64,000 nucleotides of DNA from Eubacteriales bacterium (lineage in GTDB: Bacteria > Bacillota > Clostridia > Oscillospirales > SIG627), in contig JAZNYT010000010.1 of NCBI GenBank assembly GCA_045594565.1, positions 321 to 64,320 of the forward strand, in the 5' to 3' direction. Position numbers and translations under genes: made by a program. Below the pieces are notes generated by a model. The model did no database searches and was not told the origin of the DNA. It saw nothing but the letters and a program-made list of their open reading frames with translations. How positions within the stretch are numbered: the stretch's first letter is position 1; each line of letters opens with the position of its first letter. Positions 44,257 to 45,934 of this stretch are shown in pieces.

Positions 44257-44387
44257 GATTTTCGATAAGAAAATCTACCTTAACGTTGACTTTGTCAACA
44301 TTTCACGTGCGATAGCACATTTCATACGCCAACGGCGTATTTAACTCGGCAAAGCCGAATTTCATTGTATAACGCGTAGCGTTATAC
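44257..44387. repeat. array of six short perfect hairpins with about 20-nt periodicity and conserved ATTTCA-like linkers
   Basis: GATTTTC-GATAA-GAAAATC (44257-44275); GTTGAC-TTT-GTCAAC (44285-44299); GTGC-GATA-GCAC (44307-44318); ATACGCC-AAC-GGCGTAT (44324-44340); TCGGC-AAA-GCCGA (44346-44358); GTATAACGC-GTA-GCGTTATAC (44367-44387). The last five centres fall at 44292, 44312, 44332, 44352 and 44377. Confidence 0.8.
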
Positions 44388-44586
44388 TCTATTCCTGCGA
44401 TTCTCGTGATACCCGTATATAAACCCACAACACTAAAATGGATTCCCCTACTCGAAGCAGGTGCAGACCTCCCGTACAGGCTCGACCTATACGGACGTTG
44501 GGAGCAAAAATGTTAGAAAGCGGAAACCGCCCTTGCTTATGCAGGGTTTTTATCTATGGGTACACGGCCTTGTGGGAAGGACGTGT

Positions 44587-44623
44587 AAAAAAATAGTGAG
44601 TACTTCGGTACTCACTTATTTTT
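44587..44623. terminator. bidirectional terminator-like palindrome (copy 1 of a repeated element)
   Basis: AAAAAAAT-AGTGAGTAC-TTCG-GTACTCACT-TATTTTT. Confidence 0.65.
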
Positions 44624-44671
44624 AGTTATATTTGTGCTTACGCACAAGTTATATTGCTTCGCAGTTATATT
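44624..44671 (+). repeat. three direct copies of AGTTATATT
   Basis: Copies at 44624-44632, 44647-44655 and 44663-44671, separated by small hairpins TGTGC-TTAC-GCACA and GC-TTC-GC. Confidence 0.7.
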
Positions 44672-44718
44672 TTTCCTTCGGACAAGTGATGTTTTCTCCT
44701 GCGTAGAAAATTCAGGTT

Positions 44719-44754: not shown

Positions 44755-45150
44755 TTATTTTACTACTTTTTTGTGGCAAGAGGGGCAATAAAAAGTATTA
44801 CTTTCTATATCTGAATTACCGTGTGGACATTTTATAAAATTATCTTCATTGTCATTTTTTTCATGTTCTTCGTCTTTATCTTCACCGTTATTTCCAAAAG
44901 ACAAATATTTCATTGAATTAGATATACTTTTCATGTAGCATAAAAATTCTCCGTAAGCATAATACATAACTCCGGACAAAAATAGTATAACAAGCACCAA
45001 CAGTGAACACACTACCCCTGTTGTAAACTCAAGCATAGTTGTTTCAAAATCAAGCAATAATACTATCAACATAGCAAACTGAAGTACCAGACCCAATAAA
45101 ATAATAAATTGACCGATAATCTTCAATACTTTTCCTATATTATTAAACAT
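44755..45150 (-). CDS. small two-TM membrane protein with acidic linker and C-terminal zinc-ribbon
   Basis: 131 aa. TM segments IIGQFIILLGLVLQFAMLIVLLL and VVCSLLVLVILFLSGVMYYAY, linker GEDKDEEHEKNDNED, then CPHG-x13-CPSC. Confidence 0.6.
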   Translation of the reverse strand: MFNNIGKVLKIIGQFIILLGLVLQFAMLIVLLLDFETTMLEFTTGVVCSLLVLVILFLSGVMYYAYGEFLCYMKSISNSMKYLSFGNNGEDKDEEHEKNDNEDNFIKCPHGNSDIESNTFYCPSCHKKVVK

Positions 45151-45171
45151 TTTTCTTCTCCTTTTTATGAT

Positions 45172-45188
45172 TATTCACCGCGTGAATA
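45172..45188. promoter_or_regulatory. 7-3-7 palindrome, candidate operator for the adjacent XRE regulator
   Basis: TATTCAC-CGC-GTGAATA, in the 105-bp divergent intergenic region. Confidence 0.4.
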
Positions 45189-45255
45189 TTATATTCCGAA
45201 TCTTTATGAATGTCAAGAATAAAATATGTCATAATTGAATATAGAGGTGAGGAAT

Positions 45256-45474
45256 ATGAAAAATATAAAGCTTATCAGAGTTTCAAAGGATTATACACAG
45301 CTAAAAGTTCAAATGGATACGGGAATTTCGCAGAGTGTTTTATCAAAATATGAAAGAGGCGACCTCATGCCAACAAGCGAAAATCTTTTGATACTTGCAA
45401 AATACTATAACACAAGTCTTGATTTTCTAATGGACCTCACCGATGAAACGTCGCCGTATCCTAGAAAGAAATAA
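45256..45474 (+). CDS. XRE-family helix-turn-helix transcriptional regulator
   Basis: ORF track 45235-45474; ATG 45256 follows GAGGTGAGGA. MKNIKLIRVSKDYTQLKVQMDTGISQSVLSKYERGDLMPTSENLLILAKYYNTSLDFLMDLT. Confidence 0.8.
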   Translation: MKNIKLIRVSKDYTQLKVQMDTGISQSVLSKYERGDLMPTSENLLILAKYYNTSLDFLMDLTDETSPYPRKK

Positions 45475-45506
45475 AAACAGTGAGTACTTCGGTACTCACT
45501 GTTTTT
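45473..45506. terminator. bidirectional terminator palindrome (copy 2 of the repeated element)
   Basis: AAAAACAGTGAGTAC-TTCG-GTACTCACTGTTTTT: a perfect 15-bp stem. The 22-nt core is identical to 44595-44616. Confidence 0.8.
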
Positions 45507-45579: not shown

Positions 45580-45608
45580 TTGCTTTTTATAGCTATATAT
45601 GATATAAT
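45580..45608 (+). promoter_or_regulatory. promoter of the small toxin mRNA
   Basis: TTGCTT 45580-45585, 17-nt spacer, TGATATAAT with the -10 at 45603-45608. Confidence 0.6.
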
Positions 45609-45726
45609 CACCTCGGCTACCAAAAACGGTAGGCGGTTAGCCCTCTGACTCAGAGGGAGATTATAAGCCCTCTGTTAACATAGAAATCTGACTTGTCGGA
45701 AATCGAATCATCAGGGGGAATGCATC

Positions 45727-45816
45727 GTGACATCGTATGAAGTAATTACACTTTTTATTGCTGTAATCAGTATAATAGTGAAATTGCTCATTGAGCTAAT
45801 AAATGCAAAAAAGTAA
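45727..45816 (+). CDS. 29-aa hydrophobic peptide, putative holin-like type I toxin
   Basis: Below the ORF-track cut-off. GTG start 7 nt after GGGGGA (45714-45719). Translation MTSYEVITLFIAVISIIVKLLIELINAKK: one TM helix and a Lys-Lys tail, resembling the M-[ST]-x-Y-E...KK pattern I recall for the putative holin-like toxin family. Confidence 0.6.
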   Translation: MTSYEVITLFIAVISIIVKLLIELINAKK

Positions 45817-45899
45817 CCGCCCGAGCCTGAGAAACTTGGCGGTTACCTTTTCGTAACTGTTAAATTCAGGGCTAACCGTCTATCGGTAGCCTTTTTTCT
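45807..45899 (-). ncRNA. candidate antisense antitoxin sRNA, convergent with the toxin mRNA and overlapping its 3' end
   Basis: The consensus minus-strand promoter at 45906-45934 points into the toxin 3' region. On the minus strand, GTAACCGCC-N16-GGCGGTTAC followed by TTTTTT (45847-45807) gives a transcript of about 90 nt, covering the toxin stop codon and 3' UTR. Confidence 0.55.
45870..45897 (+). terminator. intrinsic terminator of the toxin mRNA
   Basis: GGCTAACCG-TCTAT-CGGTAGCC followed by TTTTTT. Confidence 0.7.
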
Positions 45900-45905
45900 G
45901 TAATC

Positions 45906-45934
45906 ATTATACCATAAGATATAAACAGTGTCAA
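45906..45934 (-). promoter_or_regulatory. consensus sigma-A promoter for the antisense RNA
   Basis: On the minus strand: TTGACA (45934-45929), 17-nt spacer, TGGTATAAT with TATAAT at 45911-45906. Confidence 0.7.

Follow-up and report, generated by a model that had tools for sequence, protein, structure and literature searches.

In the closest described systems, the type I toxin-antitoxin pairs bsrG/SR4 and txpA/RatA of Bacillus subtilis, the two genes converge, the antisense RNA covers the 3' end and stop region of the toxin mRNA, the toxin is a short one-helix peptide with a basic tail, and the Shine-Dalgarno sequence is sequestered. The antisense RNAs of these pairs are about 180 nucleotides (nt) long for SR4 and about 220 nt for RatA. 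The "holin-like toxins" of Fozo et al. are the TxpA family, and TxpA-like sequences in Clostridiales were noted in 2010 (PMC2887945); among such hosts, a 2019 review named only Clostridium bolteae. We analyzed a 64,000-nt stretch of contig JAZNYT010000010.1 from a Eubacteriales bacterium (the window, whose positions are used below), in which a gap of about 350 bases between two ordinary genes was found to hold a tiny gene for a membrane peptide and, facing it, the gene of a small RNA. With a probability of about 0.78, we assign this locus to the chromosomal type I toxin-antitoxin modules of the TxpA/BsrG (Hol-Tox) kind, its antisense RNA and toxicity being predicted. It is a real, divergent, unannotated member of that kind, and the kind is not new, as the original prediction, made by a model from the sequence, had already said. 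The features of the locus are as follows.

45580..45608, plus strand: sense (toxin) promoter, TTGCTT, 17 nt, extended -10 TGATATAAT; predicted start at G45615/G45616
45615..45897, plus strand: predicted full-length toxin mRNA of about 283 nt (from the fold and metatranscriptome contigs)
45615..45644, plus strand: 5' arm, GGCTACC-AAAAAC-GGTAGGCGGTTAGCCCT, partner of the 3' arm (from the fold, RNAalifold, and compensatory changes)
45641..45674, plus strand: two CCCTCTG anti-Shine-Dalgarno copies (45641-45647 and 45668-45674) around CAGAGGG (45651-45657); alternative helices possible
45712..45719, plus strand: Shine-Dalgarno region CAGGGGGA, with GGGGGA at 45714-45719 and the start codon 7 nt downstream
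45727..45816, plus strand: putative toxin open reading frame (ORF) of 29 amino acids, MTSYEVITLFIAVISIIVKLLIELINAKK, GTG start, TAA stop (from the ORF listing)
45813..45846, both strands: interior hairpin, GTAACCGCC (45813-45821), 16-nt loop, GGCGGTTAC (45838-45846), with the stop codon inside
45867..45897, plus strand: 3' arm and sense terminator, CAGGGCTAACCG-TCTAT-CGGTAGCC-TTTTTT
45870-45897, plus strand: 3' hairpin, GGCTAACCG-TCTAT-CGGTAGCC-T6
45906..45934, minus strand: antisense promoter, TTGACA, 17 nt, TGgTATAAT (score 12/12)
45808..45899, minus strand: predicted antisense (antitoxin) RNA of about 92 nt (from promoter, terminator, and fold)

All of the sequence features listed in the original prediction were found where it had placed them when the sequence was read again. 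The sense promoter TTGCTT-17-TGATATAAT was present at 45580-45608, and the minus-strand promoter described as perfect (45934-45906) scored 12/12 and carried an upstream TG. The frame from GTG 45727 to TAA 45816, named as the only sensible one, was the sole ORF of at least 20 amino acids within the predicted sense transcript, and its peptide combines a single membrane helix with an acidic N-terminus and a tail of Lys-Lys. At the sequence level, the locus has both parts of a generic type I module, a hydrophobic ORF of fewer than 60 amino acids with its own ribosome-binding site and an antisense gene with its own promoter and terminator whose product is complementary to the toxin mRNA. As in TxpA/BsrG systems, this predicted convergent antisense RNA lies over the mRNA 3' end, including the stop codon. 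It would consist of a 5' hairpin (GCUACCG-AUAGA-CGGUUAGC), a spacer, and a terminator hairpin and is complementary to the stop codon, 3' untranslated region (UTR), and 3' arm of the mRNA over positions 45808-45897. The locus is single-copy in the 64-kb window, where its 21-nt 3' arm is unique (0 matches expected).

The GGCGGTTA motif, said to recur four times, was found in three exact copies with an imperfect fourth, both strands counted. One of the earlier claims needed amendment. The interior hairpin had been taken as the antisense terminator, and its minus-strand T6 does end the predicted antisense RNA; its plus-strand CTTTTCG is a weak sense terminator. Because sense transcripts of relatives can stop there too, the hairpin is a terminator for both directions and not for the antisense RNA only. 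A simple terminator scan, limited to loops of at most 8 nt, listed neither the interior nor the 3' hairpin, because the interior loop is longer than 8 nt and the stem of the 3' arm is bulged.

The locus also differs from bsrG and txpA in several ways. At about 92 nt, its predicted antisense RNA is unlike SR4 and RatA in length, the stop codon lies inside a bidirectional terminator, and the 5' domain of the antisense RNA is a copy of the mRNA 5' arm. The family is hosted by anaerobic Clostridia and Negativicutes of the gut, the window site is not a prophage, and the peptide and RNA of the window fall below every curated threshold.

Relatives were sought by DNA, the 29-amino-acid peptide being too short for protein-based searches, first with blastn for distant matches and then by scanning one genome per species with the 3'-arm pattern GGCTAACCGTNTANCGGTWRC. 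The 3'-arm 21-mer was present in at least 119 stretches of the species-representative genome collection. The comparison set comprised 133 related copies, against which the features of the locus proved to be conserved and not due to chance, and the 119 fully flanked copies were used for feature counts. Matches found with blastn included a gap, free of annotation, that separates two MATE transporter genes on the [Eubacterium] eligens ATCC 27750 megaplasmid, a Monoglobus pectinilyticus plasmid with three tandem copies, and a phage scaffold from human faeces, and these three loci had a common order of promoter, 5' arm, structured leader, Shine-Dalgarno sequence, small ORF, stop-codon hairpin, 3' arm, and opposing promoter. 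The convergent, 3'-overlapping layout that had been proposed recurred in most of the 119 fully flanked relatives. Among the matches listed, hosts were mostly Lachnospiraceae (Butyrivibrio, Pseudobutyrivibrio, Roseburia faecis, Coprococcus comes, Agathobacter, Acetatifactor, Oribacterium, Waltera, and Hominiventricola), with others in Acutalibacteraceae, Anaerovoracaceae, Family XIII, and Bulleidia and, within the Negativicutes, in Anaerovibrio, Schwartzia, Megasphaera, and Selenomonadaceae. Module-bearing bins assigned to Bacteroides, Paludibacteraceae, and Bacteroidaceae are probably the result of binning error. In Alistipes and Sphaerochaetaceae bins the arm was matched, but no ORF with a Shine-Dalgarno sequence was found, and matches in Planctomycetota and Zeaxanthinibacter, in which the other features were absent, were rejected as having the look of chance matches to the pattern.

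Tandem arrays of the module were also observed, with three copies on the Monoglobus plasmid, four in one Lachnospiraceae metagenome-assembled genome, and two in several others (array coordinates L002 900-1650, L018 3600-7060, and L030 4090-4800). In L016 (3716-3836), a remnant without an ORF, both arms, one half of the interior hairpin, and the antisense promoter, still intact, are retained, as if the toxin had been deleted and the antitoxin gene spared. Arm-to-arm joints seen in contigs from X1 and X8, in which about 225 nt are skipped, were considered as stand-alone hairpins or a deletion form and rejected: no metagenome match had arms 16 nt or less apart. Because this remnant was also the only one of all fetched loci with joined arms, and because the alignment output gave the interior of the joints as "not known", we read the joints as paralogues with common arms and an interior too different to align.

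The antisense promoter was conserved in position among these copies. A score of at least 9/12 was obtained in 101 of the 119, with the -10 box 12 to 17 nt beyond the arm, and a score of at least 10/12 in 78/119, versus 2/119 in each of two control segments. A recognisable 5' arm core was present in 77 of the 119 copies, 55 of which had a sense promoter-like site (at least 9/12) no more than 75 nt upstream; in the relatives listed, the sense -10 box was about 7 nt ahead of the 5' arm. The original prediction had made conservation of the ORF among homologous loci a test of itself, and a hydrophobic ORF of 22 to 36 amino acids with AGGAGG, GGAGG, or GGGGG 7 to 10 nt upstream of its start was found in 77/119. 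The stop codon lay within a perfect hairpin stem in 66 of the 77 ORF-bearing copies. At least two K or R residues were present among the last six positions in 79 of 83 ORFs and an acidic residue among the first nine in 81 of 83. The peptides fall into at least three classes: a dominant class A (e.g., MLTIEGLIAVISLCLTCFSLGYSFGKNSKTQK), a class B of the form M-[TS]-x-Y-E..., to which the window peptide belongs, and a class C (e.g., MEYVYIIIFMIVFITLIESIKK). Database names of the family peptides were "hypothetical" or "uncharacterized" only, and single sequences occurred on more than 1000 contigs.

Strains close to that of the window differed at this site. The L124 and L125 metagenome scaffolds have the XRE gene, promoter, and 5' arm in common with the window at 98.3% identity and then carry a different cassette, which encodes the Hol_Tox-type peptide MVSYEEMFLFGSLVVSIIALVYNITKKK; this peptide is very similar to that of L080, the best Hol_Tox match. 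In L126 and L127 the XRE protein is identical and the module is absent, and L123 has the same module as the window with an ATG start and the change N27I. The variable site lies at 1290-1610 in L124, 690-875 in L126, and 3320-3690 in L123.

We examined the predicted folds of both RNAs. The 286-nt sense RNA folded at -99.8 kcal/mol (z = -7.1), a stability reached by 0 of 200 shuffled sequences, and the 96-nt antisense RNA at -37 kcal/mol (z = -4.8). Two structural claims of the original prediction were upheld here: the mRNA ends were paired with each other in the fold and showed compensatory changes in relatives, and the ribosome-binding site was predicted to be hidden, the Shine-Dalgarno sequence at 45712-45718 being paired with CCCUCUG 45668-45674 in the minimum-free-energy fold of the window RNA. 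When 55 full-length sequences were submitted to RNAalifold, only the 16-bp long-range end helix was retained, because the lengths of the 5' UTR helices vary too much for alignment; these helices were treated separately, in Python, outside the RNAalifold alignment. Predicted arm-arm pairing probability averaged 0.95 over 74 loci and was at least 0.8 in 70 of them. The outer 9 bp of the end helix, which are largely free of the search pattern, covary, with all nine positions paired in 50/74 loci and compensatory variants such as GGTGCTACC/GGTAGCACC, AAGGCTACC/GGTAGCCTT, AAGGCAACC/GGTTGCCTT, and AGAGCTACC/GGTAGCTCC. In loci with GCAACC, a local 5' hairpin would break while the long-range pair is retained, which favours the end-to-end helix. 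The interior hairpin was present in 71 of the 74 relatives, with 36 stem variants that retain pairing (TAACC/GGTTA, TGACC/GGTCA, TAGCC/GGCTA, and TAATC/GATTA among them), and its A-run on one side and T-run on the other indicate a bidirectional terminator.

Since the DNA carries the two arms as inverted repeats, the RNAs resemble, and do not complement, one another in their 5' regions: the antisense 5' domain GGCUACCGAUAGACGGUUAGCC is a same-sense copy of the mRNA 5' arm. This copy matches the 3' arm better than the mRNA 5' arm does, with no G-U pairs and no bulge, and should therefore outcompete the 5' arm for the 3' arm. Removing or unpairing the 3' part raised the predicted paired probability of the window Shine-Dalgarno sequence from 0.72 in the long form to 1.0, and over the 74 loci, predicted Shine-Dalgarno pairing rose from 0.83 to 0.92 when the 3' part was held unpaired (p = 1e-8). 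This predicted tightening parallels the dual action of SR4 on bsrG (PMC6563280). A further likeness lies in the BsrG Rfam consensus, which also has a 5'/3' closing helix and a small hairpin set into its 3' side.

Between the anti-Shine-Dalgarno region and the Shine-Dalgarno sequence, we also observed a strongly conserved leader motif, ACATAGAAATC, followed by a short variable hairpin and GAAATC (45690-45705 in the window; columns 92-137 of alignment A2). The stem of the hairpin covaries (CCC/GGG, CUGC/GCAG, and UCC/GGA).

Transcription was assessed from RNA data in the form of unstranded assembled contigs. For the window locus, one contig of the X4 gut metatranscriptome spanned 45643-45873, and both flanks had depth 0. 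A paralogous locus gave contigs of 266 and 269 nt, which begin near the 5' arm and reach approximately to the 3' arm, in the X37 and X38 bovine metatranscriptomes. The locus of R. faecis JCM 17581, at L059 7190-7545, gave a 242-nt contig at depth 737 in the X36 mouse-gut RNA library, which began in the interior of the 5' arm and stopped at the T-run that follows the interior hairpin. At the C. comes locus, depth over the module was 50 to 985 and over the flanks 0 to 3 in the X47 bovine metatranscriptome, and was flat at 12 to 16 in the DNA-like run X53. Depths so far above those of the flanks indicate that the module is a discrete, very abundant transcription unit, and transcription of the family is strong in gut samples of humans, mice, and ruminants. 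There seem to be two sense forms, a long one ending at the 3' arm and a short one ending at the interior terminator. At the R. faecis locus, we also observed an X34 contig that skips 272 nt (L059 7062-7333), comprising the ORF 3' end, hairpin, 3' arm, and antisense promoter. The depth-737 X36 contig ends, on its 5' side, about 19 nt inside the predicted transcript (L059 7486) with an inverted 4-mer and adapter, and this end may represent a 5'-processed RNA.

From these features, a mechanism can be proposed for the TxpA/BsrG-like module. The constitutive-looking sense promoter would make the ~283-nt mRNA, whose first 30 nt are predicted to pair with its last 25 nt, and this end-closed mRNA with its masked Shine-Dalgarno sequence would be stable and poorly translated. 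The antisense RNA could pair fully with the 3' arm, spacer, and stop-codon hairpin of the mRNA, and its 5' part, as a better-matched copy of the 5' arm, would be able to displace that arm from the 3' arm. Displacement would open the protective end helix and create a long duplex for RNase III. Antisense binding may also let the 5' UTR refold such that the Shine-Dalgarno sequence is fully locked, a thermodynamic prediction that resembles the action of SR4 on bsrG. Upon loss of the antisense RNA, presumed unstable, the stable mRNA would be translated and the peptide would damage the membrane. The short sense form of many relatives would overlap the antisense RNA at the stop-codon hairpin only.

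Other described systems share parts of this organization. In Enterococcus faecalis, EF3263 (txpA-like) and its RatA-like RNA pair a divergent TxpA-family peptide with an antisense RNA of about 110 nt over the 3' UTR (PMC2887945), and that system was recognised by the same reasoning as applied here. No DNA similarity to EF3263 was detectable, plasmid and phage searches gave clostridial-type loci only, and, unlike in EF3263, the conserved arms GGTAGGCGGTTAGCC and GGCTAACCGTCTATCGGTAGC were seen in the clostridial family only. The par locus of pAD1 (fst RNA I/RNA II) also converges into a shared bidirectional terminator and makes a toxin mRNA that is stable and structured and in which the Shine-Dalgarno sequence is sequestered. 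In par, direct repeats render the 5' regions of the two RNAs complementary, whereas the repeats here are inverted, the 5' regions are alike, and the complementarity is in the 3' part. None of the Fst models matched the family peptides scanned, and the window locus is not of the Fst/RNAII type.

As in hok/Sok of R1 and aapA1/IsoA1 of Helicobacter pylori, long-distance 5'/3' pairing closes the full-length toxin mRNA, and here too the long form may occur alongside a 3'-shortened one; a review covers what such 5'/3' interactions do (PMC6733600). The sequences are unrelated, however, the hosts of those systems are Gram-negative, and their antisense RNAs act at the 5' region, whereas the one predicted here would act at the 3' end. 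The Clostridioides difficile type I modules, CD2517.1/RCd8 and CD2907.1/RCd9 among them, resemble the window locus in clostridial hosts, a hydrophobic N-terminus, a lysine-rich tail, and convergent antisense RNAs (PMC5961336, PMC6563280). Compared by description, they differ in that their toxins are 34 to 59 amino acids long, are prophage borne or adjacent to CRISPR arrays, and are reported to lack TxpA similarity.

We then compared the peptides and RNAs to curated models, with cut-offs of 23.3 bits for Pfam Hol_Tox (PF16935), 55 bits for Rfam BsrG (RF01412), and 70 bits for NCBIfam PepG1 (NF041589). The description of the peptide as holin-like held at the family level, since class-B peptides of four relatives (L070, L040, L080, and L109), set in the same RNA frame, passed Hol_Tox with 26.5 to 35.2 bits; the window peptide itself gave no Hol_Tox match at E up to 10. 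A PHROG "holin" family matched three peptides of the family alignment. Matches to the PepG1 and ComI models of NCBIfam were weak and sub-threshold, the best relative reaching 22.9 bits with PepG1. Rfam BsrG matched the Acutalibacteraceae locus L080 over the full model length, also below threshold (28.5 bits, E = 1e-4 in 1.1 kb).

Several points weigh against assigning the window locus to the TxpA/BsrG kind. The toxicity of the peptide is predicted. The window peptide had no Pfam, NCBIfam, or PHROG match, its nearest relative, L042, scored 12.2 bits against Hol_Tox, and the window locus had no Rfam match at E up to 10. Shine-Dalgarno pairing is modestly above that of the shuffle control (0.83 versus 0.74) and is a weak discriminator. 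The relatives were gathered by an exact 3'-arm pattern, and because that pattern fixed the arm core, its invariance is a matter of ascertainment and proves nothing. The RNA evidence is all unstranded and the antisense RNA is predicted; moreover, the abundant class-A RNA may end at the interior hairpin, in which case the antisense overlap would be much shorter than first proposed. No obvious mobile element carries the locus, and a stabilising role is therefore not evident.

In the strongest alternative, the product is a small membrane peptide that serves the physiology of the cell under cis-antisense control, for instance by modulating a transporter, competence, or envelope stress in the manner of ComI-type or other small membrane proteins, and the locus is no toxin or addiction module. 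A chromosomal site among housekeeping genes and an mRNA that is very abundant in gut metatranscriptomes would suit such a peptide, relatives match ComI weakly as well as PepG1, and certain family members are reported to be non-toxic in certain hosts (Fozo et al. 2010, PMC2887945). We nevertheless consider this unlikely. The predicted architecture is that of experimentally proven toxins, in that the Shine-Dalgarno sequence is sequestered, the mRNA ends are closed, and a strong antisense gene is dedicated to the toxin; peptides in the same frame pass Hol_Tox, the TxpA family; and the presence/absence, cassette swaps, tandem arrays, and ORF-deleted remnants that retain the antisense gene are typical of toxin-antitoxin loci.

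It is much less credible that the locus makes a pair of structured non-coding RNAs in which the 29-codon ORF is incidental and untranslated, as might be suggested by very stable folds, by RNA arms and hairpins conserved more than the peptide, and by the absence of a protein family match for the window peptide. A strong, correctly spaced Shine-Dalgarno sequence accompanies the ORF in 77/119 copies despite wide peptide divergence, and the hydrophobic core, acidic N-terminus, and K/R tail are retained in about 95% of the 83 ORFs. Pairwise comparison of 38 distinct class-A genes gave 5318, 3703, and 10101 differences at the first, second, and third codon positions, and single-base codon differences were synonymous in 5307 cases versus non-synonymous in 1422. 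This third-position excess and the resulting ratio of 3.7, compared to 0.24 and 0.08 in the shifted frames, constitute a coding signature for class A. In the window subtype, the GTG start is replaced by ATG in near-identical sequences (the 97.8%-identical L123 and the X1 and X8 contigs), and a profile built from class-B peptides of other loci ranked the window ORF first of 1421 small ORFs (E = 0.0016; 14.9 bits, with the next at 8.8). For this subtype, the evidence for translation, drawn from sequence comparison, is thinner than for class A and points the same way.

The weakest alternative, that the arms are the ends of a small mobile element resembling a miniature inverted-repeat transposable element, or a generic terminator repeat, with the ORF and promoters as passengers, can draw on arms that are imperfect inverted repeats around a ~230-bp cassette and multi-copy in metagenomes, on cassettes that differ between strains with a common left flank, and on the missing locus in L126 and L127, but it is hardly tenable because both promoters lie outside the arms and are conserved together with them, the presence/absence boundaries fall beyond the promoters, neither a transposase nor a target duplication was seen, the scan for directly joined arms was negative, and the compensatory changes fit an RNA helix.

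Beyond the assignment of this one locus to the TxpA/BsrG-like kind, we tentatively suggest that the family may represent an undescribed and very widespread RNA chassis of gut Clostridia and Negativicutes with swappable toxin cassettes and a strand-displacing antisense RNA. Such a chassis might combine three parts, namely, near-invariant arms by which the mRNA is closed, a bidirectional terminator in which the stop codon is buried, and an antisense 5' domain that mimics the 5' arm, and unrelated-looking peptides of at least three classes might be exchanged on it as cassettes, the dominant "LGYxxGK" class matching no known family. If this were true, the chassis would be a Gram-positive counterpart of hok/aapA1 end closure joined to SR4-like control at a distance, and gut metatranscriptomes would contain few transcripts as abundant as those of the family. 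In the literature, we found no description of the family in gut Lachnospiraceae and their allies, and there is no Rfam model. The conserved arms, the predicted antisense RNA that mimics the 5' arm, the cassette exchange, and the very high expression are worth following. Type I toxin-antitoxin loci are almost never annotated, and recognition of the family would improve the annotation of gut commensal genomes. The family also offers a naturally varied sequence set for mRNA end closure and 3' antisense control of translation, as well as candidate counter-selection or plasmid-stabilisation parts for the genetically difficult Lachnospiraceae.

The neighbourhood of the module in the window has features of its own. 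The module lies directly downstream of the terminator of an XRE regulator, which forms a divergent gene pair (44755-45474) with a 131-amino-acid ORF. The regulator (45256-45474, plus strand) is an XRE/HTH_3 protein of 72 amino acids; this ATG form is on record and a 79-amino-acid TTG-start form is not. The 131-amino-acid ORF (44755..45150, minus strand) has N-terminal membrane helices and a C-terminal CxxC...CxxC zinc ribbon and is preceded by a perfect 12/12 promoter (45216..45188). Farther upstream, a Gut-1 RNA (RF01706, 56.9 bits) was found at 44295-44367 on the minus strand and also in the related scaffold L124 (95-167), and a second Gut-1-like copy, sub-threshold at 40.3 bits and inverted relative to the first, lies at 44623-44697 on the plus strand. 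Between both Gut-1 copies is a sub-threshold match to 6S RNA (44389-44582, plus strand; 30.5 bits, E = 7e-4). An identical 22-nt terminator hairpin core, AGTGAGTACTTCGGTACTCACT, stands after the 6S-like RNA (at 44595-44616) and again after the XRE gene (at 45479-45500), about 880 nt away.

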